The notes: generated by a model from the letters alone, not told the origin. Shown: positions 1,770 through 62,320, numbered from the stretch's first letter. The stretch: 64,000 bases of DNA from Patescibacteria group bacterium (GCA_041665505.1 JBAYIR010000003.1:45363-109362); one strand, 5' to 3'. Program-made: numbers and translations.

Positions 1770-1773
1770 TATT

Positions 1774-19769: not shown

Positions 19770-19797
19770 TTTATAGATTAATTTTCAGTAAATATAT

Positions 19798-38263: not shown

Positions 38264-38387
38264 ATTTTTTATTATATATATAAGTTTATTATAACATATT
38301 CGTTGCATTTCTACCATTGTTGTAGCTCTTGTCAAAAATGATATAATATACTATTATATACCAGTCTTTTATCTTATGGAGAGTTGG

Positions 38388-38444
38388 CAGATCCCGCAGG
38401 GCGGGACCCCGCTACGCGGGGGCGGCTTAAAAAGTTCTTGAGTC
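38388..38444 (+). repeat. Miniature copy of the tRNA-Ser-targeting element: a 14-nt duplicate of the tRNA-Ser(TGA) 5' end plus a 43-nt GC-rich double hairpin
   Basis: ggagagttggcaga is identical to nt 1-14 of the downstream tRNA. It is followed by tcccgc-agg-gcggga and ccccgc-tac-gcgggg hairpins. About 90% identical to the copy at 38847-38903. Confidence 0.6.
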
Positions 38445-38470
38445 TTTGGAAAGAATAATTTATTTTATAT

Positions 38471-38558
38471 GGAGAGTTGGCAGAGCGGTCGAATGCGGCG
38501 GTCTTGAAAACCGTTGAGCCGAAAGGTTCCGAGGGTTCGAATCCTTCACTCTCCGCCA
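38471..38558 (+). tRNA. tRNA-Ser (anticodon TGA), long variable arm, encoded CCA
   Basis: Manual cloverleaf: 7-bp acceptor GGAGAGT/ACTCTCC, anticodon loop CTTGAAA, long extra arm, T-arm GAGGG-TTCGAAT-CCTTC. Confidence 0.9.
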
Positions 38559-38692
38559 TTCGATTCCGTCGCGTATGACGCGACTTCACTCATGGCCTTC
38601 GGCCACTTATTTGGTATATAAAGTGATAAGTTGTCGAATGTCCTGAGCGATCCCGAGCATAGCGAGGGAGAGTCGAAGGGCAGGAGTATATT
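38553..38692 (+). repeat. Repeat R1 copy 1 (~95-nt well-conserved core within a ~140-nt span), immediately 3' of tRNA-Ser(TGA); second copy at 62189-62320
   Basis: About 93% identity over attccgtcgcgtatgacgcga ... ggccttcggccacttatttggtatataaagtgataagtt.tcgaatgtcctgagcga. Contains a gtcgcgt-atg-acgcgac hairpin and a ggcc-ttc-ggcc hairpin. Confidence 0.7.
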
Positions 38693-38727
38693 ACCGATAG
38701 GCAGTAGTTACTTTGTTTTTTTATCAT

Positions 38728-38803
38728 GTCCTCGTAGCTCAATGGATAGAGCGTTTGGTTGCGGTCCAAAAGGCTGCAGGTTCGATTCCTGCCGGGGACA
38801 CCA
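38728..38803 (+). tRNA. tRNA-Arg (anticodon reads GCG), encoded CCA
   Basis: Manual cloverleaf: acceptor GTCCTCG/CGGGGAC, D-stem GCTC/GAGC, anticodon stem TTTGG/CCAAA with loop TTGCGGT, T-arm GCAGG-TTCGATT-CCTGC. Confidence 0.8.
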
Positions 38804-38846
38804 CACTTCGCTAAAGTAAGGTTGTTTATTAAAATTTATTTATTTA

Positions 38847-39186
38847 GGAGAGGTGGCAGATCCCGCAAGGCGGGACCCCGCTACGCGGGGGTGGCTTAAA
38901 AAGCTTACTGTTATGTATAAAGTTTATATTTTACAAAGTATTAAATATAAAATATATTATATAGGGCATACTAAAGATATAAATGATAGAATGAGCAGAC
39001 ATAATAGTGGGGGATCGTCTTATTCAAAAAAATTTATGCCTTGGAAATTGATTTATACTGAATTTTATAATACTAAATCGGAAGCTTATAAAAGAGAGTT
39101 AGAAATTAAAAGTTATAAAGGTGGTATAAAATTTAAAAAGTTGATAGGAGTTTGGGAAAAATAGTTTATTAAAATTTATTTATCAT
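38847..39186 (+). mobile_element. GIY-YIG nuclease cassette inserted into the 5' region of tRNA-Ser(GCT), duplicating ~35 nt of target
   Basis: attaaaatttatttat plus ggagaggtggcaga occurs both at 38825-38860 and at 39168-39200 (the true tRNA start). Between the two copies lie the conserved GC-rich double hairpin and an 83-aa GIY-YIG ORF. Confidence 0.45.
38913..39164 (+). CDS. Small GIY-YIG (URI-domain) nuclease, UPF0213/COG2827-like
   Basis: YKVYILQSIKYKIYYIGHTKDINDRMSRHN ... YKRELEIKSYKGG shows the GIY-(x10)-YIG and R..HN motifs. The upstream in-frame ATG at 38853 lies in the GC hairpin, so it is unlikely to be the start. Confidence 0.75.
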   Translation: MYKVYILQSIKYKIYYIGHTKDINDRMSRHNSGGSSYSKKFMPWKLIYTEFYNTKSEAYKRELEIKSYKGGIKFKKLIGVWEK

Positions 39187-39276
39187 GGAGAGGTGGCAGA
39201 GTGGTCGAATGCGGCACCCTGCTAAGGTGTTATCCGGGAAACCGGATCGAGGGTTCGAATCCCTCCCTCTCCGCCA
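39187..39276 (+). tRNA. tRNA-Ser (anticodon GCT), long variable arm, encoded CCA
   Basis: Manual cloverleaf: acceptor GGAGAGG/CCTCTCC, anticodon stem GCACC/GGTGT with loop CTGCTAA, long extra arm, T-arm GAGGG-TTCGAAT-CCCTC. Confidence 0.9.
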
Positions 39277-39365
39277 CATCGAGCTAGCACGAGGATCTAG
39301 AGAGACTCGAGCGCTCGAGGATGTAAAAAACAACTTCTTTATGAAGCTGTTTTTTTGTTTAATAA
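39277..39365 (+). repeat. att-like segment plus terminator directly 3' of tRNA-Ser(GCT); related copies at 41860-41975 and 62315-62375
   Basis: Shared agctagcacgagga core and a conserved aaaaaacaacttctt..gaag..gttttttgtt hairpin/T-run terminator module. Confidence 0.55.
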
Positions 39366-41700: not shown

Positions 41701-41859
41701 GTTTATTAAATAATAATTGTTAGATAATCTAAGTATATATTATTATATTTATAATATCAAGTATATTGATAACTTTATTGATTTTTTAAAGTTTGTGTAT
41801 TGTTAGTATAATATTAATAGTAAGAGCACTAATATTAGCCACGTAGGTGGTTAAAAACA

Positions 41860-41975
41860 TTAACATCTTAGAGCTAGCACGAGGATGTTCGAATCCCTTT
41901 GTGTCCGCCACTTCGTGCTAGCACGAGGGACTTAAAAAACAACTTCTTGAAGAAGGTGTTTTTTGTTTTAACTTA
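41860..41975 (+). repeat. Degenerate tRNA-Ser 3' fragment with att-like core and terminator module (island junction)
   Basis: gaggatgttcgaatccctttgtgtccgcca resembles the T-arm and acceptor 3' end of tRNA-Ser(GCT), flanked by agctagcacgagga / cttcgtgctagcacgaggg repeats and the conserved terminator hairpin. Confidence 0.55.
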
Positions 41976-42032
41976 GCTTGATTTTAGTAGTTTGTAGGTG
42001 TAAAGTGTAAATATTATTAACTCTTATGTAAT

Positions 42033-42818
42033 ATGATAGAGTTGTTATATAAATGGCAAACATTAATTGGGTCTTTTTTGGGTCCTTTTTTGGCAGTAGC
42101 ATTTTCAGTTATTGGTTATTTCTTTATAGAGTCTCGGAAGAGAAAAGAATCCATGAGGATAATTGAAGTTTCTTTAACACAAACTCTAAATGATTTGTTT
42201 GTAGCCAGAAAGACAGCAGAACAATTTTTAAAAAGAGTGGAGATAATAATGGAGGAAATACAAACTGATATGGATAAAGATAAATATGTTTTAACAGAAA
42301 CTAACTTACCGCCGATTAATATTTATTTAGATGAAGAATTACCAAAAATAAAAACTAAATCTTATTATGTACATAATAAACTTTTAATAATAACTGGGAC
42401 CTTAAAAAATATAAATACAAATTTGAAAGAATTAAAAAATAATTTTAGTAGTCTAGCTAAAAAAAATGAATTTTTAATTCATGTTGAAGCCACACATAAA
42501 GAACAAAAACAAACATATTTAGCAAATTTAAAAGATTTTTATCGTATTGTAGAAGAAGATTTAATTAAAAAAAATTTAAATAGAGGAACTGAAGTACTTG
42601 TACAAACAAAAATTTACAATCAAAAATTAATGAAAAGGTGGAGTTTTATTATAAAATGGAAATATGAAGGAGTGTCTTTTAAATATTTTAAAAATAATGG
42701 TGGTATATTAAAAGATAATAGACATATGAGCGCTCTTGACAGAATAGATGAAATGTTAAAACAAGAGGTTGAATGTCAAATAAAAGAAGCTGAAGACAGA
42801 CAAAAACAGTTCAATTAA
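42033..42818 (+). CDS. Hypothetical N-terminally membrane-anchored, coiled-coil-rich protein (partner of the DUF4238 gene)
   Basis: 261 aa with TM segment LIGSFLGPFLAVAFSVIGYFFI and a K/E-rich helical remainder. 7-nt gap to the next gene. Confidence 0.55.
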   Translation: MIELLYKWQTLIGSFLGPFLAVAFSVIGYFFIESRKRKESMRIIEVSLTQTLNDLFVARKTAEQFLKRVEIIMEEIQTDMDKDKYVLTETNLPPINIYLDEELPKIKTKSYYVHNKLLIITGTLKNINTNLKELKNNFSSLAKKNEFLIHVEATHKEQKQTYLANLKDFYRIVEEDLIKKNLNRGTEVLVQTKIYNQKLMKRWSFIIKWKYEGVSFKYFKNNGGILKDNRHMSALDRIDEMLKQEVECQIKEAEDRQKQFN

Positions 42819-42825
42819 TATAATT

Positions 42826-43827
42826 ATGTCTATAAAAACTGCAACACATCATTATGTGCCCAGGTGTTACCTAGAGAATTTTTTATGTGAAAAATCTAAT
42901 AATCAAATTTACGGGTATAAAAAGAGTGGTGAAATAATTAAATCAAATATAAAAAATATAGCTGCAAAGAATAATTTATATACATTTACTGATAAAACAA
43001 CAGGTAAAAAAACTAATATTGTTGAGAAAATGTTTGGAATAATAGAGTCAGCAGCCTGTCCGGTTATAAAAAATGTTATAGTTAATAAAGATATAAATTT
43101 AACAGATGCAGATAGAGGTGCTATAGCACAGTTTACAGCTTTTTTAGTAACTAGAAATTTATATTATGATACTCAGCAGAAGCACATGACTGCTGAACTT
43201 ATTAAACAAATGTCGATTGAAAGAGCCAAACATAAAGAATCTTTCAAGCATAGTTTTAAAGATGCTGGAATTACATTTGACAGCGATAAAGAATTTGAAG
43301 ATTTAAGAGATGCAGTATTAGATTTTGACAATCATTTTAAAGTTGATATAAGTGGGGGCGAGGGACATTTTATGAAAGTGGCAACTGACATAGCCATGGA
43401 ATTAACCAATATATTATATTTTAAAGAGTGGCACTTACTTATTAACGATGGTTCTCGTGTTTTTATCACCTCGGATAATCCTGTTACTCTCTGGGGTTTG
43501 AAAAGTACACCTAAGCAATTTAGATTGGGGTTTGCATTTGCATCTATTCTTTTAACTCTATCACCAGATGTATTACTTTTAATGCGTGATAGATTACTTA
43601 GTAAAACAATAATTAAATTAAATAGGGAAAAAATAGATTATGTAAATAAATCAATTATGAAAGGATCTGATAAATTTATTTATTCAAATTTAAAGTCTAA
43701 AGATTTATATAATAAATATTCGGAGTTATCTCAACACTCAAATCAAGTAAAAGTTCATAATATAAAATGGGCACCATATATTATTACACAGCAACCTGAA
43801 GCAGATATTGAGCCATCATTAGTCTAA
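42826..43827 (+). CDS. DUF4238-family protein (a family reported as a stand-alone anti-phage defence gene)
   Basis: N-terminal HHYVPRCYLENF matches the hallmark HhYvPqfYLrnF start of DUF4238; 333 aa. Confidence 0.65.
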   Translation: MSIKTATHHYVPRCYLENFLCEKSNNQIYGYKKSGEIIKSNIKNIAAKNNLYTFTDKTTGKKTNIVEKMFGIIESAACPVIKNVIVNKDINLTDADRGAIAQFTAFLVTRNLYYDTQQKHMTAELIKQMSIERAKHKESFKHSFKDAGITFDSDKEFEDLRDAVLDFDNHFKVDISGGEGHFMKVATDIAMELTNILYFKEWHLLINDGSRVFITSDNPVTLWGLKSTPKQFRLGFAFASILLTLSPDVLLLMRDRLLSKTIIKLNREKIDYVNKSIMKGSDKFIYSNLKSKDLYNKYSELSQHSNQVKVHNIKWAPYIITQQPEADIEPSLV

Positions 43828-43892
43828 AATAAAAAAAACAGTTCTTGCAGACTGTTTTTTTATTAAAATTTAAATTATATAGGTGCCTTTCT

Positions 43893-44615
43893 CTATAGTT
43901 TCTTTTGTATATGTCTTTCTATTATCTTATTTACATATTTATTTTTTAACCTGAAAGCCCTAATTTCAGCTGGTTGATTACTAAATGGTTGAACTGTTTT
44001 TGATTTATTACAATTTGGATCTTTAAATTTACCATTATGCTTGGGGCAGATAGTTAAATATTCATGCTGACCCTGATGTATATCGTGAGCCCGGCCCTCT
44101 TTTATTTTGGAAATAATTAAATTATAATCAGGCCGAAGTTCATTTAAAACTTTATTATCCATTTCCCATAAAAAAACATATTTTATAGTATATTCTGACC
44201 TAGACTTACTTTTCAAGTGTATATAAAAAATAAACAATATCTTTTTATTTTTTTTATAAAGTTCTGATTCCGTAATATCATTACATAAAGCTTCTTTACT
44301 ATAATTTATTATATTAAGCGATAATGGCTCTTTCACTCTTAAGGTCTTGTTATCAGATAAATATTTAAGCGGACATGTTTTTATTTCTATCCCCAGATGA
44401 TTTATATCTGGTAAAGCAGAGCTGTTCATATTTATTCCAAAGAAACCTTTTTCTATTAAGTAGCCAACATTGCCTTTAGTTGTGACCCTTGATTCTTCAT
44501 CTGATGTTTTTATAGATTTATGAATCTGATTCAAAGTTTTGCCTTCTAGCCACTTTGCTTCTTTTAATAAGGCTTCTTCGTTTGGTATGTCTTCAATTTT
44601 TTTATAGTTTATCAT
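43893..44615 (-). CDS. MutH/Sau3AI-family GATC-type endonuclease (restriction component)
   Basis: TKGNVGYLIEKGFFGINMNSSALPDINHLGIEIKTCPL aligns with the MutH block KGWIGVLLEIWLG ... PEQDFAALGVELKTIPV. Divergently paired with a C5-MTase. Confidence 0.75.
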   Translation of the reverse strand: MINYKKIEDIPNEEALLKEAKWLEGKTLNQIHKSIKTSDEESRVTTKGNVGYLIEKGFFGINMNSSALPDINHLGIEIKTCPLKYLSDNKTLRVKEPLSLNIINYSKEALCNDITESELYKKNKKILFIFYIHLKSKSRSEYTIKYVFLWEMDNKVLNELRPDYNLIISKIKEGRAHDIHQGQHEYLTICPKHNGKFKDPNCNKSKTVQPFSNQPAEIRAFRLKNKYVNKIIERHIQKKL

Positions 44616-44707
44616 ATTTTGTTAATATATTTTATGTAAAATAATGAAATTTGATCAATTTTAATCTTTATGTTATAATAGCAATAAATATATAAGTCAG
44701 CAAACTT

Positions 44708-45982
44708 ATGCCAAATAATAAAAAGAAAAAAACAATTAAAGTTATAGACCTTTTTGCCGGTGTCGGAGGCTTTCGTGTTGGGTTAGATAGAGCAAGTAAT
44801 ACAAAATATGGCTCTTTTGAGACCATCTGGAGCAATCAATGGGAGCCAGCTACCAAGAAACAACATGCTTCCGAAGTATATGTAGCTCGTTTTGGTAATA
44901 AAAACCACTCTAATGAAGATATAGCTAAAGAAGTGCAAAAGAATAACGTACCTGACCACGATCTTTTGGTTGGTGGTTTTCCCTGCCAAGATTATTCTGT
45001 AGCTAGGACTCTTAGCCAATCTGCTGGCATTGAAGGAAAAAAAGGAGTGTTGTGGTGGGAAATATATAAGATATTAAAAAACAAAGGAGCTAAGGCACCA
45101 AAATATTTATTTCTTGAAAATGTTGATAGATTATTAAAATCACCAGCCAACCAAAGAGGAAGAGATTTCGCAATTATACTAGGTTGTCTGGCAGAGCTTG
45201 GTTATGCTGTTGAGTGGCGTGTTATAAATGCTGCTGAGTATGGTTTTGCTCAAAGAAGAAGACGAGTCTATATATTAGGCTTTAAAAAAGGAACTAAGCA
45301 CTATAAAAAAATTGAAACTTTGCATAAAGAAAATAAGATACTAGATATAATAGAAAAAACTGGAATATTTGCCAAAGCTTTCCCTATAGAAAAAAATGAT
45401 ACTCCCATACCAGACATTAAACTTGATAAAAATATCAAAAAAATATCTGATAATTTTAATAAAGAGAAAGCTGGCTCCCGTAGCCTATTCAATAATTCTG
45501 GCGTCATGTTTAATAATGAAATATTTACATTACAAGTAAAAGAAGATTACACTGGCCCAAAGAAAACCATAGGTGACATAATATTACCTCTCAATAAAAT
45601 ACCAAAAGAATTTTTCATAGATAAAAATAGTTTAAAGAAATGGAAATATTTAAAAGGTGCAAAAAAAGAGCCTAGAAAAGGAAAGGATGGTCATGAGTTT
45701 TTCTATACTGAAGGTGGTATGGTTTTCCCTGATGCACTTGATAAACCATCCAGGACTATTATAACTGGTGAGGGTGGAGCATCTCCATCTAGATTTAAAC
45801 ACGTAATTGAACAAGATGGACAACTAAGAAGACTAACTCCTCTAGAGTTAGAACGTTTATGTGGTTTTGATGACCACCATACAGAAGGAGCAGCTGATGT
45901 AAAAAGAGCCTTCTTTATGGGTAATGCTCTCGTGGTTGGTGTTATAGAAAAAATAGGTAGAGAACTAATTAAGCGTGTTTAA
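44708..45982 (+). CDS. DNA (cytosine-5) methyltransferase
   Basis: Motif I IDLFAGVGGFRVGL, motif IV GGFPCQDYSVA, motif VI LFLENV, and C-terminal motifs; 424 aa. Confidence 0.9.
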   Translation: MPNNKKKKTIKVIDLFAGVGGFRVGLDRASNTKYGSFETIWSNQWEPATKKQHASEVYVARFGNKNHSNEDIAKEVQKNNVPDHDLLVGGFPCQDYSVARTLSQSAGIEGKKGVLWWEIYKILKNKGAKAPKYLFLENVDRLLKSPANQRGRDFAIILGCLAELGYAVEWRVINAAEYGFAQRRRRVYILGFKKGTKHYKKIETLHKENKILDIIEKTGIFAKAFPIEKNDTPIPDIKLDKNIKKISDNFNKEKAGSRSLFNNSGVMFNNEIFTLQVKEDYTGPKKTIGDIILPLNKIPKEFFIDKNSLKKWKYLKGAKKEPRKGKDGHEFFYTEGGMVFPDALDKPSRTIITGEGGASPSRFKHVIEQDGQLRRLTPLELERLCGFDDHHTEGAADVKRAFFMGNALVVGVIEKIGRELIKRV

Positions 45983-46011
45983 TTTAATATAATCTTACTT
46001 TCAAAATAAAA

Positions 46012-46039
46012 AGACCGAGAAATATTTACGGTCTTTTTG
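46012..46039. terminator. Bidirectional terminator between methylase and recombinase
   Basis: agaccg-agaaatattta-cggtct hairpin with an A-run upstream and a T-run downstream. Confidence 0.6.
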
Positions 46040-46076
46040 TTATTCAAGGAAATATTTTGTTTTTCAGGTATAATTA

Positions 46077-47387
46077 CTATACCAGCTTAATTTTTTTATT
46101 CATATAAATTAACTTGCTTTCTAGATTAGTTAGTAATTCTCTTTTTTCTAAAATTGAACCTTCTTTGAGTAAATATTTAGTATAATTTTTAATATCGATG
46201 TCGTCTACGTTAATGTCTTTAGTTTCTCCAGTTACCATACTTTGGAATTCTTTAAATCGTTTAATTTCATATTTTAATTTATTTTGTATAGGTAACTTTT
46301 TAATATCCAGCTTATCTACCAACTTTTGTAATTGTTTAATCAAATCTACTTCATTTATATACCCACACTTACAATGTTTATCTTTTGCTTTAGTACACCC
46401 ATAATAAATATGTTTGTTAGTATCTCCATTTTTTAATTTCTTGAATTTTTCAGTTGCAGATATACCAGAACCACAAAGTCCACATTTCATTATTTTAGTA
46501 AAAGCAAATTCAATATTTTCTTTTCTAACAAGTTGTGAATTTTTCATCTGATCTTGAACCATATCAAATAATTCTTTTGTTATTATCGGTTCATGCTTAC
46601 CTTGATACCAATTACCACTACCCCGTGGATATTCAAAAGGGCCATAGTAGAAAGTATTTTCAAGTAAGCGATAAATATTACCAAGACTCAAATGTTTTTT
46701 GCCCAAATGTGTTCTGAAGTTTAAATCAAATTTAAGCCAGTGATATATTTTTCTGCCCGACCATTTCTCATAAGCAACTTTTTCAAACATTTGTTTTATA
46801 ATATGGCCTCTATCTGGATCAACTAGACATTCTCCTTTGTGATCTATTCGTTTTTCTTTGAAATATCCAGTTGGCGGACAAGTTGGCCACAAACCCATTT
46901 CACATCTTGTCCTTAAACCACGTTTAACATTTATGCCTCTGTTATCATTTTCCAGTTTAGCTTGAGAACATAGAATCATTAATAAGAATTTTTCGTTTGG
47001 TGAATTACTAAACGTTTGTCCGTAGGTACGAATACCAAGAAGTTTTTTAGCATCCATCAGATCCACCAAAGACCCCAGATCTCCTGCGTTTCTAGATAGT
47101 CTATCTGGCGCCCAAGTTAAGATAGCATTAAATCTTTCTTCTGATATATCATGAATTAATTCTTTAAACACAGGACGATTACCAGAATCTTTAGCTGATT
47201 TGGATTCTCTTCTGATATCAATAATTTCAAGGTTTTCACGTTCTGCAATTTGAAGCATTTCTTTAACTTGAGAATCAATTGATAGAGCTTGTCGTTCATC
47301 TGATTCAGTACTTTTTCGGGCGTATAGGCAATACTTCAATTTAATGTCTGGGGTTAGCCCAAATTTGGTTTGTTGTGATATATTCAT
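46077..47387 (-). CDS. Large serine recombinase (resolvase N-domain, recombinase domain, zinc ribbon)
   Basis: N-terminal YARKSTESDERQALSIDSQ (catalytic Ser region), R..G motif, recombinase domain, and a C-terminal Cys cluster (CGLCGS ... YYGCTKAKDKHCKCG); 436 aa. Confidence 0.85.
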   Translation of the reverse strand: MNISQQTKFGLTPDIKLKYCLYARKSTESDERQALSIDSQVKEMLQIAERENLEIIDIRRESKSAKDSGNRPVFKELIHDISEERFNAILTWAPDRLSRNAGDLGSLVDLMDAKKLLGIRTYGQTFSNSPNEKFLLMILCSQAKLENDNRGINVKRGLRTRCEMGLWPTCPPTGYFKEKRIDHKGECLVDPDRGHIIKQMFEKVAYEKWSGRKIYHWLKFDLNFRTHLGKKHLSLGNIYRLLENTFYYGPFEYPRGSGNWYQGKHEPIITKELFDMVQDQMKNSQLVRKENIEFAFTKIMKCGLCGSGISATEKFKKLKNGDTNKHIYYGCTKAKDKHCKCGYINEVDLIKQLQKLVDKLDIKKLPIQNKLKYEIKRFKEFQSMVTGETKDINVDDIDIKNYTKYLLKEGSILEKRELLTNLESKLIYMNKKIKLV

Positions 47388-47401: not shown

Positions 47402-47466
47402 ACATTTTATAGCTTTTGCTAAGCTTTTAGCTGTCGACAACTTGTTGGCAAGTTTCCTTAGCAAAA
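47402..47466 (+). repeat. Direct repeat A (~65 nt, internal 10-bp dyad ttttgctaag/cttagcaaaa); partner B at 52165-52230
   Basis: acattttatagcttttgctaagc ... tgtcgacaacttgttggcaa.tttccttagcaaaa is shared by both copies (~88% identity) with a divergent 7-nt central block. Confidence 0.7.
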
Positions 47467-47684
47467 TCGTCAAAAAGCTTTATAATATGGACCTATATGT
47501 CATTTGCTAATATTAGCTATAAATTTGACATTACATCAGTTTAGTAGTATAAATTTATTGCTTGTCAGAGTTGGTACTTTGACAAATTTCGCTTTAAAAC
47601 GTAGAGTGTTATTGATAAAGCTTATTTATTGGTCATTTATCAATAATTTGATATACTTTATTAGTAAATAATTAATTTAAAACA

Positions 47685-52164: not shown

Positions 52165-52230
52165 ACATTTATATAGCTTTTGCTAAGCCTCGCTATGTCG
52201 ACAACTTGTTGGCAACTTTCCTTAGCAAAA
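52165..52230 (+). repeat. Direct repeat B (partner of A at 47402-47466)
   Basis: See repeat A; the same orientation on the + strand. Confidence 0.7.
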
Positions 52231-52488
52231 CTATAAAATTGCGTTATGATAATATAGACATTTGGCTAGTTTTGAGCTAAAATGTTATTGACAATTAGGT
52301 GTAAAAACCGATGCCTAAACCCTAGAAATTCTAGGGCATGGTATAAAAAACTCGTTGAAAATATTGAACTCCGCGTTCAGTGACTTTTCAACGAGTCATA
52401 TCGGGAAACTGGTATGGGGCCGTAAGGCCTAGCTGGCGCGGGGTTTTATGTTTGCGTCAGCTGATAATTAATAAGTAAGTAAAATATT

Positions 52489-53438: not shown

Positions 53439-54902
53439 TTAAGCAAAATAAATTCTATAAGTTTTTGGTCTATGTTCTGATAAGCTATGGACCAGATTGG
53501 CAAAGGCATCAGCTAAGTCGTCATGTTTTTCTACCCCAAAATGAATAATCTGTTGTATCAATTGTTCAGCTCCTTGTTTAGGAAATAGTATCTGTCCATT
53601 TTTGATCATGTTAGCTGTCAGGACAAGGCGACTACGCTTGTCCTGATTACCTGGCCTTGTTGTCATGACGTTCAAAATACCCTCACTTTCTAATTGTTGC
53701 GGCAAAGCTTTTTGATAAGCTACATCTTCAATAACAAAGGTAGGATGAATTTCGTCCTTTTCGTAGCTTTTGTCCAATATTTTGCAGGTATCAACGGTTT
53801 CCGGAAAGCTCAAACGTTTATTTATTATCTTTGGCAAAATATAAATCTGATAACCAGTTTTGGTTTCATATAGAAGTCCGGGAACCATAGCCGTATAATC
53901 AGCCACATTACTTTTTGAAATAGCTGGATCTATACCTATTCTTATTTCAATATGAGAAGAATAAGCACTGTCTATTTTTATAGGAGCTGGTATCTCATCA
54001 TAGTATTGAATCCATTCTGGATATATAACTTGATCTTCATCTGGAACTATATTAAGCATATATTCTCGTTGCCAAGCAATTTCATTGCCTGTTTTTTTTC
54101 GTTCTGTTTGTACGTCTTGCTCTGTAGGATATTTACCAGGCCAGAGACATTTTCCTTTACTATCAATAATTGGAAAATAAAGAAATTTTCCATCAATAAA
54201 ATCATTATCAATTTCACTTTTAAGTCGCATGAGAAGTGAATCTTCGTGTAATAAATTACCAACTATAACTAACCGTGTATTTTTATCTCCTGCTGGGATT
54301 AATTCTCCTTTTAACCATTGATAAGTCTTATTTCTTCCTTCTCTTGTTTTTGTAGAAGCAATATTTTCAACATCGTCACAGATTATCAAATCTGGTCTAT
54401 GCTCATGATGTCTTAAACCGCGAATACTTTGTTCTGAAGAAGCTACTGTAATACGAGCGTCTGTATTAGAAAATACCAATGACTGTGAACCCCACTCATC
54501 GCTATCTTCACGAAATGGGCCGAGGTCTTTTTTAAGTAATTCGTTGTCCTCAAGTTCACGGCGTAAATTCATCATATGCTGTTTGGCCTGGGCTTGTGTC
54601 TGACAAAATATAACGACGAATCTCTTTTGCTGTTTACCTAAAATAGCCCAAATAGGATAGGCGGTTGTAACCATTGTCGATTTTCCACTTCCCCTGAAGG
54701 CGACCACAAATAGATTGTCTCGGTCACTTATTTCTATTAAATGGATAATCTCTTTTTGGAAATCAGCTGTAGCGTATTTTACATAGTGAGCGTAATAAAA
54801 ATGGAAAAAATATGAAAAACTTTCTTTAGTTATTGTCGTCCTTACTTTCCTGTCCTTGGTCATCTGGTCTACCAGATCCTGTGGTATCATTTTGTTTGTC
54901 AT
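53439..54902 (-). CDS. Phage terminase large subunit
   Basis: N-terminal ATPase Walker A VAFRGSGKSTMVT and Walker B LIICDDVEN. C-terminal RNaseH-like nuclease region with acidic residues; 487 aa. Confidence 0.75.
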   Translation of the reverse strand: MTNKMIPQDLVDQMTKDRKVRTTITKESFSYFFHFYYAHYVKYATADFQKEIIHLIEISDRDNLFVVAFRGSGKSTMVTTAYPIWAILGKQQKRFVVIFCQTQAQAKQHMMNLRRELEDNELLKKDLGPFREDSDEWGSQSLVFSNTDARITVASSEQSIRGLRHHEHRPDLIICDDVENIASTKTREGRNKTYQWLKGELIPAGDKNTRLVIVGNLLHEDSLLMRLKSEIDNDFIDGKFLYFPIIDSKGKCLWPGKYPTEQDVQTERKKTGNEIAWQREYMLNIVPDEDQVIYPEWIQYYDEIPAPIKIDSAYSSHIEIRIGIDPAISKSNVADYTAMVPGLLYETKTGYQIYILPKIINKRLSFPETVDTCKILDKSYEKDEIHPTFVIEDVAYQKALPQQLESEGILNVMTTRPGNQDKRSRLVLTANMIKNGQILFPKQGAEQLIQQIIHFGVEKHDDLADAFANLVHSLSEHRPKTYRIYFA

Positions 54903-55296
54903 CTGATTTATTATTTAATGGTAAAATCTCCGCCAGTTGCAAAGCTTTGCGTACAATCTCTGCTTGTGACGGTGTAAGTTCTCCTGAGTCTTCAAATTTA
55001 GAAGTAACTTCCACTTTATCTCTAAATTTTGGATTTCTATGATTAAGCCAAAATCTTATAGCCGAAAAGTTTTTTTCTTTTATAAGGGTAAGTAATTGGC
55101 TTTCACTCATATCATTGACCAATGCCTCACCTTCGGTTAATGCCTCATCCATAGCTTTAGAGAAATTTTTATCATCTCGTTTCCAACGATAGATACTATT
55201 TCTTGAGATACCTGTTTTTTCACAGGCTATCTGTACGATTGGAATTTTCTTTAGTTCCTCTAGGAATATATTTTTGATTTTATTTTTCTTAGACAT
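54826..55296 (-). CDS. HTH DNA-binding protein, probable phage terminase small subunit
   Basis: IVQIACEKTGISRNSIYRWKRDD helix-turn-helix, acidic C-terminal tail, positioned immediately upstream of and overlapping the large terminase. Confidence 0.5.
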   Translation of the reverse strand: MSKKNKIKNIFLEELKKIPIVQIACEKTGISRNSIYRWKRDDKNFSKAMDEALTEGEALVNDMSESQLLTLIKEKNFSAIRFWLNHRNPKFRDKVEVTSKFEDSGELTPSQAEIVRKALQLAEILPLNNKSDDKQNDTTGSGRPDDQGQESKDDNN

Positions 55297-56563
55297 GATC
55301 CACCTTTGCCTTTCTGCCAGTTAACTTCTCATATCTTCTAATTGTTAGGTCACAAAATATAGGCTCTAACTCAAGGGCATATACTTTTCGTTTTAATTGT
55401 TCCCCAGCTGAAATGGTGCTACCTAACCCAGAGAAGGAATCTAAAATGATGTCGCCAGGCTTAGTACAACGGCGAATAGCCTTCTCGTGTAGCTTTGGTG
55501 GTTTGCTGGTCGCGTGTTCGTATTTTTGACCAGATAAGCGTTTTACCAACCATATATCAAGCTCATCAGAAGCTTCACTAAGTAGATTATTGCCAGTTGT
55601 TATTTCTTTATTCAATACCTCATTTAAGTTTTGAATTGATGGTGCAATATATGGTTTTCCTATAACCCCATATACTGTTGGCTCATAACATTTATTAAAA
55701 GCCACTTTTGGTGTCGGGTTTTGAGAGTTTTTGAGCCATAGGCAAACTCGCTTGTTTACTATGCCAAGCTCTCGATATAATTCTTGAATTAATCCTATGT
55801 AGGTTTGGTCACACCAGTAGAAAATATGGCAATTTGATTTAGTAATTGATAGTGCTACCACCAGAGTTTCTTTTATGAAGTTTCTATATTCCTCATAGGT
55901 ACGGCTATCATTTACATTACCGCCGTAGTCATTTTTACCTCCAATACCTTTTGAGTAATTAAGATTGATGTTATATGGGGGATCGGAATAAATCATTGAA
56001 GCTTTTTCATTCCCAAACAATCTTTTTAGATTTTTCGTATCGCTAGAGCTACCACATAACAACTTATGTGGTCCCAGATGAATTAAATCACCTAGTTTAG
56101 TTTTAGGCTCTTTAATCTTTTTAATTTCTTCATCAACGTCAAAGTCTTCATCTTTAACCTCTAGATTATTATCCCATAGGTGTGATAGATCAACTTGATC
56201 GAATCCTATGTCGACCAATAGGTCTAAATCAAAAGATTTGAGTTTTTCGAAATCCCATTCACCACCTAGAGCGTTGCTGGCTATAAGGTAGCTATCTGAT
56301 TCCTTTTTGGTTAAAGGTCTGTTGGGGATGCGGATATCAATTAACTCTTCTCCTCGACCTAGTAGCTGAAGAGCTTTAATTCTTTGATGTCCTGCGAGTA
56401 TCTTGCCGTCTAGGTCAATTGCTGGTATCTCTACCAAATTGTATCTTTTCAGGCTTTTTTTGAGATCCGACATTTGCTTGTCGGAAATAGTTCGTGGGTT
56501 AATATCTTGGGGGACAAGATCATTAACCCGTTTCGGCACGGTGTGCCATTTTAATTTTTCCAT
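55289..56563 (-). CDS. Phage-type DNA methyltransferase with an N-terminal ParB-like nuclease domain (N6-adenine or N4-cytosine class)
   Basis: ParB-N-like VEIPAIDLDGKILAGHQRIKAL, motif IV SDPPY, and a SAM-binding region FSGLGSTISAGE; 424 aa. Confidence 0.8.
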   Translation of the reverse strand: MEKLKWHTVPKRVNDLVPQDINPRTISDKQMSDLKKSLKRYNLVEIPAIDLDGKILAGHQRIKALQLLGRGEELIDIRIPNRPLTKKESDSYLIASNALGGEWDFEKLKSFDLDLLVDIGFDQVDLSHLWDNNLEVKDEDFDVDEEIKKIKEPKTKLGDLIHLGPHKLLCGSSSDTKNLKRLFGNEKASMIYSDPPYNINLNYSKGIGGKNDYGGNVNDSRTYEEYRNFIKETLVVALSITKSNCHIFYWCDQTYIGLIQELYRELGIVNKRVCLWLKNSQNPTPKVAFNKCYEPTVYGVIGKPYIAPSIQNLNEVLNKEITTGNNLLSEASDELDIWLVKRLSGQKYEHATSKPPKLHEKAIRRCTKPGDIILDSFSGLGSTISAGEQLKRKVYALELEPIFCDLTIRRYEKLTGRKAKVDHV

Positions 56564-56734
56564 AACATTTTATGGTTAGTTGGTTAAAAAATGTATGGAT
56601 AAGAAAAAACCTATTCCACACACGAAATAGATGAAGTCCTAAAACCTCAAAGCTATTTCTTGCGCGGAACAGGCATGGCTTTTTCAGCGATACGCTATTC
56701 TACTTTTTACTACGCATTAAATTGTACTTATATT

Positions 56735-57142
56735 TTAATCCACATTTTTATTTTTTGCAAGTTTGCGGATAATCCTTTGACCATTTTTACTTTTTATAAA
56801 ATTTTCGGTATCTTTGCCTATGGCTATTGGCAGGCCATCTTTGGGTATGGAAATTAGCACTTTGTAGCCTTTTTTCTCTTCTTTTTGTAATAATTTAATA
56901 AAAGAGGGATCTTTATACAGATTTTCCAAAAACCAATCAGCACTAGGAGTATGACCATTGTTTATAATAGGACCATAAACTCGGTCTGGCCTGTTTTGGT
57001 CAAAAGCATGTTTTACTTTCTTACCTATATATTTCGTCGGCTGTTTGTCACTGGTATGCAGAGCAAAATCAGTCAATTGAATAACCTTGTATTTGACCCC
57101 ATCTTGCCTTTTAAATGGTTTTACCTCTAGTTTGTAGTCCAT
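56735..57142 (-). CDS. Hypothetical protein (135 aa)
   Basis: ORF with host-like composition in the phage-derived module; no motif recognised. Confidence 0.4.
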   Translation of the reverse strand: MDYKLEVKPFKRQDGVKYKVIQLTDFALHTSDKQPTKYIGKKVKHAFDQNRPDRVYGPIINNGHTPSADWFLENLYKDPSFIKLLQKEEKKGYKVLISIPKDGLPIAIGKDTENFIKSKNGQRIIRKLAKNKNVD

Positions 57143-57151
57143 AGTTATTTT

Positions 57152-57397
57152 TTAGCCTTTAGATTTAGTTGGATCAGCGCTCTTGGGATAGGTTCGTTCT
57201 TCTTCATAGGTTCCATCCATTTTTTTAATTTTTACAGATCCGCCTTCATTACCTACGGCTTTTCTTAAAATTCCGCCAGCTGTGGCCTCTTCTTTAGTTT
57301 CGAAAGTTTTAACGATTTTATCTGTTTTGTCATTTTCTAGTTCCCAACGATCTTTTTTTGCGTTGTAATCGAGGGTAAATTTTGGTAATTTTGCCAT
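57152..57397 (-). CDS. DUF2188-like small protein
   Basis: W.L ... KTFETKEEATAGG ... GSVKIKKMDGTYEEERTY fits the DUF2188 pattern common on phages and mobile elements. Confidence 0.45.
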   Translation of the reverse strand: MAKLPKFTLDYNAKKDRWELENDKTDKIVKTFETKEEATAGGILRKAVGNEGGSVKIKKMDGTYEEERTYPKSADPTKSKG

Positions 57398-57416
57398 AAA
57401 TTTGTAGTTTATTTAA

Positions 57417-57689: not shown

Positions 57690-57784
57690 TTGATTATAAA
57701 TTAATTATTTTTCAATTCGGCAAAGTAAGTTTAACAAAATGATGAAGACTTGTCAAATCGTATTGAAAAGTCTATACTATCAGT

Positions 57785-58123
57785 ATGATAAATAAACAAA
57801 CCCCAGAACAATTTATTGGTTCCCGTATTAAAGCGGCGCGTGAAAAAAAACGATTTTCTCAGCTAGATTTGGCGAAGCTTCTTGGTTTTCAGTCAGCCAC
57901 CGCTATTTCATTAATAGAAGCTGGTGAAAGAGGTGTCCCAGCTATAATTTTAGAGAAGCTCGGTAAAGTGTTAGATCGTGATATTATGTATTTTTTAGGT
58001 AAAGAAAATACTACTCCAGATATCAAAGTAGCTTTAAGAGCCGACAAAGATCTGTCCGACGAAGACAAGGATGCTTTAAATTTATTTATTGACCTAGCTA
58101 AAAACAGAAAGAAACGTAAATGA
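57785..58123 (+). CDS. XRE-family HTH transcriptional regulator
   Basis: FSQLDLAKLLGFQSATAISLIEAGERGVP is a canonical XRE helix-turn-helix. Confidence 0.85.
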   Translation: MINKQTPEQFIGSRIKAAREKKRFSQLDLAKLLGFQSATAISLIEAGERGVPAIILEKLGKVLDRDIMYFLGKENTTPDIKVALRADKDLSDEDKDALNLFIDLAKNRKKRK

Positions 58124-58620
58124 ATGGAGAAATCACGGATTTAGGTCCACGTAAAAAAAGTGCAAAAATTATTGCCCAAAAACTTATAAAAGAAGCCGGA
58201 GTAAAAGCTGCTCCGGTTTCTTTACAATGTATTATAGAGCATCTTCAGTTAACACATGATCTTGAGGTTCGTCGAATTTTTACTAGTAAAAAGGTTTCTG
58301 GATTGCTTGTAGTCTGCAGTGAAATGGACAAAGAGTATTCAACTATAGGATTCAATGCTAATGATTCTTGGTATCGTAGGAGATTTACAATAGCACATGA
58401 AATTGGTCATCTTCTTTTTGGTCACGCCTGTACTAAGGGCCAAGGTAATGGTTCGCACAACGAAAGAGAGGCCGATGTTTTTGCTGCAGAATTACTTATA
58501 CCCACAAAACTTATAAAGATGGATTTTAAACAATTACCCAATTTACAGCAACTTTCTAATCTTTATAGAGTAAGCCAGCAAGCACTTACTATAAAGTTAA
58601 TAGAATGTCGGTTGGTGTGA
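58120..58620 (+). CDS. ImmA/IrrE-family metallopeptidase
   Basis: HEIGHLLFGH (HEXXH) preceded by RRRFTIA. A 4-nt overlap with the XRE gene, the classic XRE/ImmA pair. Confidence 0.8.
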   Translation: MNGEITDLGPRKKSAKIIAQKLIKEAGVKAAPVSLQCIIEHLQLTHDLEVRRIFTSKKVSGLLVVCSEMDKEYSTIGFNANDSWYRRRFTIAHEIGHLLFGHACTKGQGNGSHNEREADVFAAELLIPTKLIKMDFKQLPNLQQLSNLYRVSQQALTIKLIECRLV

Positions 58621-58647
58621 AGTTAAAAAATTAAAGTTTTTAATATA

Positions 58648-59313
58648 ATGGGTTTGTCTCAGGATAGAATTAAAGAATTTAAAGAACTTCTTGAAAAAAA
58701 GACAAAAAAAGAGGTTTCTTGGGCTGAAGCAGAAGAAGGGGCTAATAATTTAGCTAATTTTTTCAAACTTCTTTATGATCAGGAAGTAATAGAGAAAAAA
58801 CGTCAAATAAGGCTAGAAAAGGAGCCAAAAGGCTTTCATTTAGAGGGTAAAGGTTACACTTGTGCTATTTGTAAAAGGCCTATATCAGACGAAGAAACTT
58901 GGTATGATAAATGGGGTATTAAATGCCCAATATGCCAAAAAGCTATAAATAAAAGGATTATCCCTGGATCTGTGGCTAAAAATGATAATAGTTGGTACTC
59001 AAAATATGATTTAGAAAGTCGTTTTAATATAGATAGATATGCTATAAAACGATTTATTAAAGAGGGTGTTTTAAAACCTCGAATTGTCCCTAGCACATCA
59101 GGAAGACCACATGTATATCTATTTTTGATTAAGGACAACAAAGAAGTGCTACCACCTAAAAAATTAACAGAATCTCAACTAGTAAAAGAAATTAAAGAGG
59201 ATGGTAAAGAATGGCTTCGCTTAGAGCCGTGGTATAGGTTTGTTGATCCTTTTAAACATTTAGAGGGGTATAAAATTATGGAGTATTTAAAGTTTACAAA
59301 AGATAAGGCATGA
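58648..59313 (+). CDS. Hypothetical zinc-ribbon protein
   Basis: CAICKRP ... CPICQK pairs (CxxC ... CxxC); 221 aa; overlaps the next gene by 4 nt. Confidence 0.5.
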   Translation: MGLSQDRIKEFKELLEKKTKKEVSWAEAEEGANNLANFFKLLYDQEVIEKKRQIRLEKEPKGFHLEGKGYTCAICKRPISDEETWYDKWGIKCPICQKAINKRIIPGSVAKNDNSWYSKYDLESRFNIDRYAIKRFIKEGVLKPRIVPSTSGRPHVYLFLIKDNKEVLPPKKLTESQLVKEIKEDGKEWLRLEPWYRFVDPFKHLEGYKIMEYLKFTKDKA

Positions 59314-62015
59314 ATAAAATTGATACTAAAATTTTAGATATTGATAAAGTAATATGTAAAAATATTGATAGATTTGATGACTCTGAAAGAGGTTTACTAT
59401 CTCAAAATATCTTATCTCAACTTAGAAATTTTGTTGAGCATATTTCGTTAAAAGTACACAGTAATGGGAAAGATATTGAAAATACATATGAAAATATTCA
59501 GATAGCTAATGCTTATGTAAGAACAAGGGGTGAATTAAAATTTTTAAGTAAATTTCATAAACTTCTACAAATCACAGCCTCTCATTACACACTTGATACA
59601 GAAAACTCTGAAAGACTGATGTTAAAATATTATGAATACTTGCTTAAAATAAAGTTATATCTCAAGGATAATCACAATTTGGAGGTTCTGAAAAACATTG
59701 ATTCTTTTCCCATCAACACAGATACTGTGTTGCAAGAATACTATAAAAAAATAGTTGAAAAGATTAATCAATCAAAATCAACAAAGGCAGAAAATGATTA
59801 TGATAGATATTATATTCAGAAAATAAAACCATTTTTTGTTGAGTATAAAGTATATTATGAAGTTACTTTTACAGCAGCTAATGATAAGGCAAGTAAATTC
59901 GATAGAGTTATCGCATTCACGAAATTTGATATTTCACACAACTATGCTGTAAAACTTTCTGTAAGTAATGATACTATACAAATTTTAGATAAAAATATGC
60001 CCATTCAAATTATTGATGATTGGGAGGTGTCAATTCGTCCATGCGAGCTAAATAATTTTGCCAGCATATTTTTAGGAAATCGTTCAGGCATACAAAGCAA
60101 CTACAGTGAATACCGTAATCTAATGACATTTTTAACTAAAACGGGGTTAAATCTAGTTGAATTTATTGACTCCGCAGACGATTATTATAAAAAAATAAGA
60201 AGTCTTATAATTAAGGAAGCTAAAGCCGTTTATTTGTTTAATATTTTGGATAAGTGTCGCGAGTTAACACAAAGCAATAAATCAGGAAACAATGTTATTA
60301 GGTATTTATTATATAATTTGAATAATAAAATAATAAAACAACAACATAAATTTGGAGGTTGCCACCTATTATCAGATTTACATCTTGAATATGGATGTAT
60401 ACCTTTTGATAAAATGCCATTTAACACTTCCTTAATAGAACATAATCCAAAAATTTCTGATTTATTCGATTGTCTAGATTCAAGTAATAGAGAACATGAG
60501 ATATTTGCTAGGTTTATAAAAAATAATACTGAAACAAAGGGGCAGTTGTATACTCCTAAAAAAAATATCACTAGCTTTGAAAATATAGACAATCTTATGC
60601 AGTTATATAATGATAGTCTATATTATAAACATGCCCATCGTAAACTCGAAGAATATAAAAATCATATTTATATAAAGGGTTATGAAGAAGGCGCCTTCCA
60701 TATTATTAAAAATTTAAAAGACCTATCTTCTACGGGGATCAAAAATTATAAAAATTCTGTAAATTCTTGGTTAAAAACATCTGCATATGAAATTGATTGT
60801 GACGATAAAAAAGAAGCCTTAAGAAACATGTTTGAAAAATCAAGAGTAGCTTTAATATATGGTCCTGCTGGAACAGGAAAATCAACTATGATAAATCACG
60901 TATCTAACTTTCTCAATAATTACAGAAAACTATATTTGGCTAATACTAACCCGGCAGTCGAAAATCTAAAAAGAAGAGTTAACGCTTCTAACAGCACTAT
61001 TAAAACTATTACTAAATTTTTATCTGCTAGAAATGAAGATGTTGAATTTGATGTATTAATAATTGATGAATGTAGTACGGTTAGCAATTCTGATATGCAT
61101 AAAATTTTGGATAAAGCATCATTCGAATTATTAGTCTTAGTAGGAGATGTTTTTCAAATAGAGTCTATACTTTTCGGAAATTGGTTTAATATAGTACAGT
61201 CTTTCGTTCCAGAAACTTCAATATTTGAATTAACTAAACCATATCGTAGCAAAAATCCTAAGTTACTTAATCTATGGGATAAAGTCAGAAATATAGATGA
61301 TGATATAGATGAACAAATTACAAAACATAATTATTCAGCTACTTTAAATGAATCTTTTTTTACTAGTTCTGATGAAGATGAGATAATCCTGTGTCTTAAC
61401 TATGATGGACTTTATGGCATAAATAATATAAATAAATTTTTACAAAGTGATAATAAGAATAAACCAATAAATTGGGGTGTTCATACATATAAAGTTAATG
61501 ATCCTATATTATTTAATGAGTCAGAAAGATTTACACCTTTGATTTATAATAACTTAAAAGGAAAAATAGTCGGCATAAAAAAATTTAGTGACAAAATACA
61601 ATTTGATATTGAGATAGATAAGGCCATAAACCAGTTTGAAGCCGATAGATATGATTTTGAATTAATTGGTGATTCTAATAATGGTAACTCAATAATCCGT
61701 TTTTTTGTTAATAAGCATGGAAGTACGGATGAAGATGATGATTCATATTCAAATACTATAGTCCCTTTTCAAGTCGCTTATGCCGTATCAATACATAAAG
61801 CTCAAGGTTTAGAGTACAATTCAGTTAAAATTGTTATTATAGACGAAACGGAAGAAATGATTACCCATAATATTTTTTATACTGCTATAACAAGAGCTAG
61901 GGAAAAGTTAAAAATATACTGGACACCGGAAACTGGGCAAAAGATATTAAGCAATCTTGAGAGGAGAAATAACGGGAAAGATGCTAAATTATTAGCATTA
62001 AAATTTAATCTTTAA
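59310..62015 (+). CDS. SF1 DNA helicase (RecD/Pif1-like AAA_30 plus UvrD_C_2) with an uncharacterised ~480-aa N-terminal domain
   Basis: Walker A ALIYGPAGTGKST, Walker B VLIIDECSTVS, and C-terminal AYAVSIHKAQGLEYNSVKIV ... YTAITRAREKL typical of RecD/TraA-like SF1 helicases. Confidence 0.75.
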   Translation: MNKIDTKILDIDKVICKNIDRFDDSERGLLSQNILSQLRNFVEHISLKVHSNGKDIENTYENIQIANAYVRTRGELKFLSKFHKLLQITASHYTLDTENSERLMLKYYEYLLKIKLYLKDNHNLEVLKNIDSFPINTDTVLQEYYKKIVEKINQSKSTKAENDYDRYYIQKIKPFFVEYKVYYEVTFTAANDKASKFDRVIAFTKFDISHNYAVKLSVSNDTIQILDKNMPIQIIDDWEVSIRPCELNNFASIFLGNRSGIQSNYSEYRNLMTFLTKTGLNLVEFIDSADDYYKKIRSLIIKEAKAVYLFNILDKCRELTQSNKSGNNVIRYLLYNLNNKIIKQQHKFGGCHLLSDLHLEYGCIPFDKMPFNTSLIEHNPKISDLFDCLDSSNREHEIFARFIKNNTETKGQLYTPKKNITSFENIDNLMQLYNDSLYYKHAHRKLEEYKNHIYIKGYEEGAFHIIKNLKDLSSTGIKNYKNSVNSWLKTSAYEIDCDDKKEALRNMFEKSRVALIYGPAGTGKSTMINHVSNFLNNYRKLYLANTNPAVENLKRRVNASNSTIKTITKFLSARNEDVEFDVLIIDECSTVSNSDMHKILDKASFELLVLVGDVFQIESILFGNWFNIVQSFVPETSIFELTKPYRSKNPKLLNLWDKVRNIDDDIDEQITKHNYSATLNESFFTSSDEDEIILCLNYDGLYGINNINKFLQSDNKNKPINWGVHTYKVNDPILFNESERFTPLIYNNLKGKIVGIKKFSDKIQFDIEIDKAINQFEADRYDFELIGDSNNGNSIIRFFVNKHGSTDEDDDSYSNTIVPFQVAYAVSIHKAQGLEYNSVKIVIIDETEEMITHNIFYTAITRAREKLKIYWTPETGQKILSNLERRNNGKDAKLLALKFNL

Positions 62016-62188
62016 GCCCTATATTTATAAAAATTACAGCTAAATGTAACTTTATACTGGCTTGCCGTGTCACTTTTGTCACTTTTTTATAAAAATAAGG
62101 CGCACGAGGATCTATTGATTTGTAAAATTATAATATAGTAAAATAACCTTACTGGGCTTATTCGGAATACGGTTCCAGCCCGAAGTAG

Positions 62189-62320
62189 CCCGCCATTCAA
62201 TTCCGTCGCGTATGACGCGATTCCACTCATGGCCTTCGGCCACTTATTTGGTATATAAAGTGATAAGTTATCGAATGTCCTGAGCGAGTGAACAAAGTGA
62301 ACGAGTCGAAGGGCACTCGT
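62189..62320 (+). repeat. Repeat R1 copy 2, preceded by a degenerate tRNA-Ser(TGA)-like 3' half; right junction of the accessory region
   Basis: 62150-62197 cggaatacggttccagcccgaagtagcccgcca resembles the variable/T/acceptor 3' part of tRNA-Ser. A 95-nt segment ~93% identical to 38556-38650 follows, then the att/terminator module (62315-62375). Confidence 0.6.

Follow-up and report, generated by a model that had tools for sequence, protein, structure and literature searches.

Whether five adjacent genes in the genome of a Patescibacteria group bacterium make up a defence island, and how its parts belong together and travel, was the question raised by a 64,000-nt stretch of DNA (GCA_041665505.1, JBAYIR010000003.1:45363-109362), which is called the window throughout. 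At 42033-47387 the window encodes a membrane protein (A), a DUF4238 protein (B), a restriction endonuclease (C), a C5-cytosine DNA methyltransferase (D) and a large serine recombinase (E). On balance, and with modest confidence, we favour the view that the block forms the cargo arm of a phage-satellite-like element of ~20-24 kb that is integrated at a tRNA-Ser locus, carrying a restriction-modification (R-M) pair, C-D, and a cassette, A-B, in which A is facultative. C-D and the recombinase each add a new member to a kind already known. Gene B is a remote relative within an established defence family, but its architectural setting is new: it shares a cassette with an unclassified membrane protein, within the hotspot system of a patescibacterial satellite-like element.

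The five open reading frames (ORFs) had been proposed in an initial annotation made from the sequence alone. Their coordinates proved exact, as did the 7-nt gap between A and B, and all of the domain families named were matched. Homologues were found for the coding sequences, and the ratio of nonsynonymous to synonymous substitutions (dN/dS) against a related element, located on a 438-kb metagenome contig and referred to as L001, was 0.18 for A, 0.13 for B and 0.07 for E; the genes are thus real coding sequences. The G+C content was 0.245-0.33 over 42-47 kb, compared to ~0.35 in the surroundings.

Genes A and B as a two-gene cassette

The evidence that A and B belong together came from the comparison with L001. 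Homology detected by blastn covered exactly 42030-43821, that is A and B and nothing else, at 79.7% identity. The pair in L001 occupies a cargo hotspot flanked by a 220-aa Zn-ribbon gene on one side and a conserved right-end segment on the other, and the pair in the window lies beside the recombinase, 16 kb from the L001-equivalent position, where a different gene stands. Because the homology was limited to the pair and the positions differed between the window and L001, the two genes must have relocated as a unit. The 7-nt junction between the A stop codon and the B start codon was identical in both elements, and the dN/dS values of A and B, at dS ~0.8-1.1, showed that both genes were under purifying selection. 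A and B thus form a discrete two-gene cassette that was relocated whole between two sites in related elements. With a gap of only 7 nt and no terminator found between them, the two genes are probably co-transcribed.

The start of protein B reads ...HHYVPRCYLENF. Protein B matched Pfam DUF4238 (PF14022) with an E-value of 4.4e-45 and 154.7 bits over model positions 2-280 of 281, and thus contains a full-length domain. The match to the PADLOC model DUF4238-Pers (PDLC03000) was more distant (4e-11, 40.9 bits, model positions 5-291 of 309). The only viral fold relative was found in Stenotrophomonas phage Smp131. An E. coli DUF4238 gene that acts singly blocks T7 (PMC9122126), in agreement with the initial annotation, and homology to this system suggests that B is the anti-phage component of the cassette. 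Here B does not stand alone, since it starts 7 nt past the stop codon of A. A DUF4238 gene with a partner had been presented as something possibly not yet described; this did not hold, because an E. coli TIR-domain defence system with a DUF4238 domain is on record (Nat Commun 2024, PMC11350192).

The gene upstream of B varied among its relatives. It encoded a 194-aa protein ending 8 nt ahead of the B relative in two loci (L009 and L010), a second DUF4238 protein with 32% identity in two others (L011 and L012) and an unrelated protein in L013-16. The A-B pair accounted for two of five types of B locus, and a six-frame search of the other DUF4238 loci with a hidden Markov model (HMM) found no A-family gene in any of them. 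In this small sample, B-clade genes were never first in the operon; a tightly packed gene always preceded them, but not the same one. Two of the proteins encoded upstream of A or B, one of 136 aa (L001, 7548-7958) and one of 194 aa (L010, 1338-1922), shared a HEPN-like R-x4-H motif, at a BLASTP E-value of only 0.075. Neither matched a Pfam or PADLOC family. The two DUF4238 genes in L011 stand in tandem, 12 nt apart, in the cargo hotspot (1375-3357).

Protein A was 100% identical to WCV71_02760, an NCBI protein from a metagenome-assembled genome (MAG) of a Patescibacteria group bacterium. It has a single hydrophobic helix at residues ~9-32, followed by RKRK. By the positive-inside rule the N-terminus is most likely outside and the C-terminus inside, which would place the remainder of the protein in the cytoplasm. 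The AlphaFold model, with a mean predicted local distance difference test score (pLDDT) of 82.7, showed the transmembrane helix running on into a long helical bundle. Protein A had been described as an N-anchored coiled-coil protein; the single N-terminal anchor was borne out, and helical bundle is the better term for the rest in light of the model. No match for protein A was found in Pfam, PHROG, NCBIfam or PADLOC. When 1.84 billion cluster representatives were searched with a profile, the family comprised 246 of them at E<=1e-3 and 203 at E<=1e-10. The full-length members were nearly all stand-alone proteins of 250-320 aa, and shorter matches covered part of the profile. Among 64 diverse members, W8, Q9, L11, G13, G17, P93, S110, Y112 and N115 were conserved in at least 90%, with G13 and G17 forming a GxxxG motif within the transmembrane helix. 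No Pfam or PADLOC family was common to these 64 members, and no relatives of A or B were found when viral contigs were scanned with the two profiles.

The loci of A-family genes were collected with alignment A1, since the broad family alignment (A3) was too diverse for this purpose, and the sample therefore consists of relatives with a QxKxYN motif. Several of these genes were tightly coupled to a gene for an enzyme: a HEPN_AbiU2 protein (L006, 1811-2530) ends 2 nt ahead of the A homologue, a NUDIX gene (L005) and a trypsin-like peptidase gene (L024) are each separated from it by 7 nt, and a HerA-like ATPase gene with small ORFs is coupled to it at no more than 7 nt (L008). Trypsin-like peptidases adjoined A in three loci. 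Of the 59 genes within three positions of A, only a minority matched PADLOC models; four of these matches were to protease domains and one gene matched PDC-S05 (3e-54). Small GIY-YIG genes adjoined A-family genes in L002 and L003.

Coupling between A and B is possibly facultative. In the mechanism that we propose, A would be an interchangeable membrane partner of B rather than an obligate sensor. It probably oligomerises via the GxxxG motif of its transmembrane helix, and it would either tether B to the membrane or act itself as a membrane-perturbing effector of abortive infection.

The mobile element, its hotspot and its boundaries

Homologues of the genes of the L001 element were found across 46-59 kb of the window: the recombinase (84% identity), the terminase large subunit TerL (48%), a TerS-like helix-turn-helix (HTH) protein (72%), an N6/N4 methylase (73%) and the Zn-ribbon gene (63%). 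L001 is a compact, 9-kb version composed of recombinase, TerL, TerS-like protein, methylase, 220-aa gene and cargo, to which the window adds the regulators and a helicase. The serine recombinase is thus one gene of a wider element, along with those for TerL, the TerS-like protein and the N6/N4 methylase, XRE/ImmA regulators and a cargo hotspot of variable content (Table 1). No capsid gene and no other head or tail gene was found among the ORFs of the element that were scanned, a set that includes part of its small ORFs. With an integrase, regulators, packaging genes and cargo that varies at one fixed position, and without structural genes among the scanned ORFs, the element has the make-up expected of a phage satellite or cryptic integrative element with a defence hotspot, and the window and L001 elements may represent a family of satellite-like elements in bacteria of the Candidate Phyla Radiation (CPR). 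The phage-like module at 53439-59313 also holds a DUF2188 protein.

The hotspot, which extends from the 221-aa gene to the right end, contained a 901-aa helicase in the window and DUF4238 cargo in L001, L010 and L011. Along its full length, the helicase matched the PADLOC candidate defence model PDC-S53 (E=0, 1350 bits). The right end of the element is well defined: homology to L001, L010 and L011 stopped at the right-end segment, and the flanks diverged directly past CCGCCA in all relatives. Host genes (glycosyltransferase, MFS transporter, ClpB) resume right of ~63 kb.

All three Pfam domains expected of a large serine recombinase (Resolvase, Recombinase and Zn_ribbon_recom) scored above their cut-offs in protein E, which also matched the PHROG integrase family (5e-60). 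Its best NCBIfam match, CcrB, was far under the cut-off (115 vs 900). The initial annotation had described the block as defence cargo, which stood the comparison: it contains a DUF4238 gene and a complete type II R-M pair in the setting of a mobile element with a large serine recombinase. PADLOC, applied to the region, returned DUF4238-Pers for B and MTase_II for D, and no match for A. The further idea that the cargo had been mobilised by a flanking recombinase was right in spirit, because the element that carries the block as cargo also encodes a recombinase. The recombinase, however, lies inside the larger ~20-24 kb element, and the att-like repeats next to it bracket another insert. Of these 83-nt repeats, which are 81% identical, L001 has one copy only. 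In the window they enclose 4.7 kb that are absent from L001 and distinct from the A-D block, with a G+C content of 0.44-0.49 against ~0.35 around it. This insert encodes a PsbP-like protein and a 1175-aa secreted protein with a Peptidase_M23 domain, four PKD domains, six LVIVD domains and a Por_Secre_tail of the type IX secretion system (T9SS) kind. A sorting tail of this kind would not be expected in Patescibacteria, so the insert could have arrived by horizontal transfer or could be a chimera made in binning or assembly.

A 98-nt direct repeat, with copies 96% identical, is a candidate att duplication with its left copy at the 3' end of tRNA-Ser(tga). Other sequences may mark the left end as well. 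A 13-mer is present only at 39287 and 62102, and a possible old junction with a degenerate tRNA-Ser(gct) 3' end stands directly left of A; in L010, too, a small island has copies of the tRNA-Ser(gct) 3' end on both sides. A promoter-like TTTAAA-16-TATAAT precedes the degenerate tRNA-Ser 3' end on the plus strand, and the segment as a whole (41785-41975) may correspond to a small transcript or to an old att junction. The assignment of 41.86-41.91 kb to a tRNA or tmRNA gene was rejected, as both ARAGORN and Rfam were negative and the sequence is that of the degenerate 3' end.

Table 1. Features of the block and of the surrounding element, in window coordinates
Feature	Position	Strand	Description
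Gene A	42033..42818	+	261 aa; N-terminal membrane anchor and helical bundle; unclassified family
Gene B	42826..43827	+	333 aa; DUF4238 protein; candidate anti-phage gene
Gene C	43893..44615	-	240 aa; single-domain MutH/Sau3AI-family restriction endonuclease
Gene D	44708..45982	+	424 aa; C5-cytosine DNA methyltransferase, cognate of C
Gene E	46077..47387	-	436 aa; large serine recombinase
98-nt direct repeat, left copy	38553..38650	+	3' end of tRNA-Ser(tga) plus flank
Possible old junction	41862..41975	+	Degenerate tRNA-Ser(gct) 3' end, 12-nt perfect palindrome CGTGCTAGCACG, terminator hairpin; directly left of A
Att-like 83-nt repeat, copy 1	47405..47487	.	Directly upstream of the recombinase start; imperfect palindrome inside
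Att-like 83-nt repeat, copy 2	52169..52251	.	81% identical to copy 1
Packaging and methylase module	53439..56563	-	Terminase large subunit (PHROG terminase 6e-81), HTH small-terminase-like protein, N6/N4 DNA methylase
Regulators and hotspot marker	57785..59313	+	XRE-type HTH gene, ImmA/IrrE (Peptidase_M78) gene, conserved 221-aa Zn-ribbon gene marking the hotspot start
Hotspot cargo	59310..62015	+	901-aa superfamily 1 (SF1) helicase; Pfam AAA_30 and UvrD_C_2; PADLOC candidate defence gene PDC-S53
Conserved right-end segment	62045..62198	+	Ends in tRNA-3'-end mimic ...GGTTCCAGCCCGAAGTAGCCCGCCA (62165-62195)
98-nt direct repeat, right copy	62190..62287	+	96% identical to 38553-38650; candidate att duplication

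The left copy of the 98-nt repeat falls within a tRNA cluster at 38367-39300 (Ser-tga, Arg-gcg, Ser-gct), which also contains a small GIY-YIG ORF (38853-39164). A 68-nt tRNA-Ser 5' fragment with a GC-rich hairpin at 38367-38434 is repeated at 38836-38903 (88% identical). Further away, the left half of the window has two very large ORFs of 2889 aa and 1158 aa on the plus strand (11100-23274).

The restriction-modification pair C-D

Protein C matched Pfam MutH (8e-23) and NCBIfam Sau3AI (3.8e-54), and its structural-sequence matches were to Sau3AI (PDB 4PXG, 3.7e-22) and then to E. coli MutH (1e-6). Its D70, E77 and K79 aligned on the MutH catalytic motif D..GvElK of the PD-(D/E)XK fold, so the triad, whose loss would have spoken against a MutH-like nuclease, is intact. 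The match to Sau3AI covered model positions 4-221 of 475 with 184 bits, below the equivalog cut-off of 300; protein C corresponds to the N-terminal catalytic half of Sau3AI only and lacks the two-domain architecture. Scores against the NCBIfam MutH models were 76.5 and 59.1 bits, far below the equivalog cut-offs of 243 and 230, and a role in mismatch repair is therefore not indicated. The partner of C is a 5-methylcytosine (m5C) methylase and not a Dam methylase.

At least 250 single-domain MutH-like proteins were related to C with 58-71% identity, and among the 120 closest listed almost all were 233-286 aa long. The idea that C is a Sau3AI truncated by the insertion of A and B was rejected, since nearly all of these 120 homologues are of similar length. 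The few relatives with a named source came from Paceibacterota, Saccharimonadales, Nanoarchaeota and other archaeal MAGs. An R-M pair of this type had been called notable for the lineage; given the number of such proteins, with the source-named ones from MAGs of CPR bacteria and of archaea of the DPANN group (Diapherotrites, Parvarchaeota, Aenigmarchaeota, Nanoarchaeota and Nanohaloarchaeota), it is not.

Protein D matched Pfam DNA_methylase (3e-66) and PADLOC MTase_II (1.8e-167), and its gene is divergent from that of C at a distance of 92 nt. The best plasmid homologues of D (45-49% identity) share their records with Sau3AI-family nucleases, adjacent to them in the two records inspected, and these plasmid nucleases, which are homologues of C, have 450-484 aa. 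In one archaeal MAG, a nuclease 66% identical to C abuts a methylase 60% identical to D. Because the pairing of nuclease and methylase recurs on plasmids and in an archaeal MAG, C-D is a conserved and horizontally spread type II R-M unit of the Sau3AI/MutH kind, and an ordinary one. Judging from family membership, the pair would cut unmethylated GATC and protect host DNA as GAT(m5)C. Protein C probably acts as a homodimer or a nickase, as it lacks the second, allosteric domain of Sau3AI. A GATC at 44653, in the intergenic region (44616-44707), falls within the -35-like TTGATC of the best match to a methylase promoter, and it is possibly a methylation-sensitive control point.

Alternative readings and known systems

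Several observations weigh against reading the block as the cargo arm of a satellite-like element in which A is a facultative partner of B. For the left boundary of the element there are rival candidates at 38.6, 39.3 and 41.9 kb, which leaves it ambiguous, and the recombinase is interior to the element and not at its end, unlike in L001. Serine integrases are also rarely associated with direct repeats of the tRNA type. The GATC specificity of C-D is assumed by homology, and avoidance of GATC was not seen in the window, where the ratio of observed to expected sites (0.81) was like that of other four-letter palindromes. DUF4238 adjoined A in only two of ~20 distinct A loci, the window and L001. 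The pair does recur, but A is not a dedicated partner, and several of the A loci without DUF4238 lie amid housekeeping genes (GyrB, MetK, IF3, GatC, ribosomal S9/L13). Relatives of B with 76-89% identity have the 194-aa protein or a second DUF4238 gene upstream and no A. Among them, the A-less copy in L011 is 89% identical to the B of L001, which is 80% identical to the B of the window, and the A-linked B genes are therefore not a clade. No fold or sequence match suggested a biochemical activity for A or B, and the E. coli DUF4238 system needs one gene only (PMC9122126).

A and B could instead be functionally independent, adjacent by chance in the hotspot and co-transcribed, with B a stand-alone defence gene and A an accessory CPR membrane protein, perhaps with a role in the envelope or in quality control. 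We regard this as a serious possibility, although a less probable one. It fits the single-gene function of DUF4238 in E. coli and the absence of A from the nearest relatives of B, as well as the ~18 of 20 A loci without DUF4238, often between housekeeping genes, with trypsin-like peptidases as neighbours in three loci and PADLOC matches, four of them to protease domains, for a minority of the 59 nearby genes. Chance adjacency does not sit well with the relocation of A and B as one, with breakpoints exactly at the ends of the pair, and with a 7-nt junction kept over dS ~1. It is also at odds with the coupling of A elsewhere, at 2-7 nt, to enzymes of the conflict type (HEPN_AbiU2, NUDIX, HerA-like) and with the tightly packed upstream gene at every B-clade locus examined. 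The 7-nt spacing, the co-transfer and conservation of the cassette in L001 and the purifying selection on both genes would also suit an obligate two-component system, in which A is the membrane sensor and B the effector, or the roles are swapped; the pair would then be a two-gene DUF4238 subtype in its own right. The initial annotation had leaned this way, proposing a two-gene variant of sensor and effector. We consider it improbable, as the co-occurrence of A and B is confined to two related elements, no A-family gene was found at the other DUF4238 loci, the A-linked B genes are not a clade and the A family is far wider than the pairing. With DUF4238 at so few A loci and other partners beside the closest B relatives, an obligate pair of sensor and effector is unsupported.

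Type II R-M pairs can act as selfish addiction modules, and all genes of the block are carried on a mobile element. Both C-D and A-B might then stabilise the element by post-segregational killing, with B as the toxin and A as its membrane-bound modulator, and the occurrence of A next to toxin-type domains (HEPN, NUDIX) at other loci would agree with this. The direct experimental evidence that DUF4238 in E. coli is anti-phage (PMC9122126) points the other way, as do the PADLOC defence candidate PDC-S53 in the hotspot of the same element and the lack of a match to any toxin-antitoxin family for A or B in the libraries searched; this explanation is very improbable. In favouring the cargo-arm reading with a facultative A, we also considered a bolder extension, which is unlikely on the present evidence: that A represents an unclassified, CPR-wide membrane family with a GxxxG motif, serving as a plug-in effector or tether for DUF4238, HEPN_AbiU2, NUDIX, HerA-like ATPases and serine peptidases, here in the hotspot of new serine-recombinase and terminase-bearing satellite-like elements in Patescibacteria. 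That would amount to a defence-hotspot system like those of P4 and P2, but in ultra-small episymbiotic bacteria.

Defence systems of CPR bacteria are poorly charted. The present comparison shows that relatives of the DUF4238 gene validated in E. coli spread among CPR genomes as exchangeable cargo of a compact recombinase/terminase element, that a single-domain MutH/Sau3AI nuclease with an m5C methylase is a common R-M type across CPR bacteria and DPANN archaea, and that an unannotated family of membrane proteins, with 246 clusters, is at times carried together with DUF4238 and other conflict enzymes. If A were a generic effector or tether, it would be a new building block of defence and a handle on the mechanism of DUF4238; otherwise the locus amounts to a routine defence island.

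The single-gene DUF4238 anti-phage system came from a P2-like prophage hotspot (Rousset et al. 2022). Like it, B is a full-length DUF4238 protein encoded as variable cargo in the hotspot of a phage-related mobile element. Unlike it, B is distant from the PADLOC model, belongs to a patescibacterial host and has a tightly packed upstream gene. The E. coli TIR/DUF4238 systems (PMC11350192) also place DUF4238 alongside another module; the partner there is a TIR NADase, whereas here it is a transmembrane helical-bundle protein without a recognisable enzymatic domain. With Sau3AI R-M systems and MutH, protein C shares the MutH-type PD-(D/E)XK fold, the D70/E77/K79 triad and the adjacent C5 methylase. 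Sau3AI and its plasmid homologues have 450-490 aa and an allosteric second domain, in contrast to the 240 aa and single catalytic domain of C, which falls in a distinct clade of single-domain proteins found across CPR and DPANN. The element itself resembles the P4-like satellite and P2-like prophage hotspots (Rousset et al. 2022) and satellites of the phage-inducible chromosomal island (PICI) type in being compact, with an integrase, regulators, packaging genes and a hotspot at a fixed position whose content varies among relatives (DUF4238 with various partners, or the PDC-S53 helicase). It differs from them in having a large serine recombinase instead of a tyrosine integrase, a TerL of its own, no capsid or other head or tail genes among its scanned ORFs, and a CPR host.

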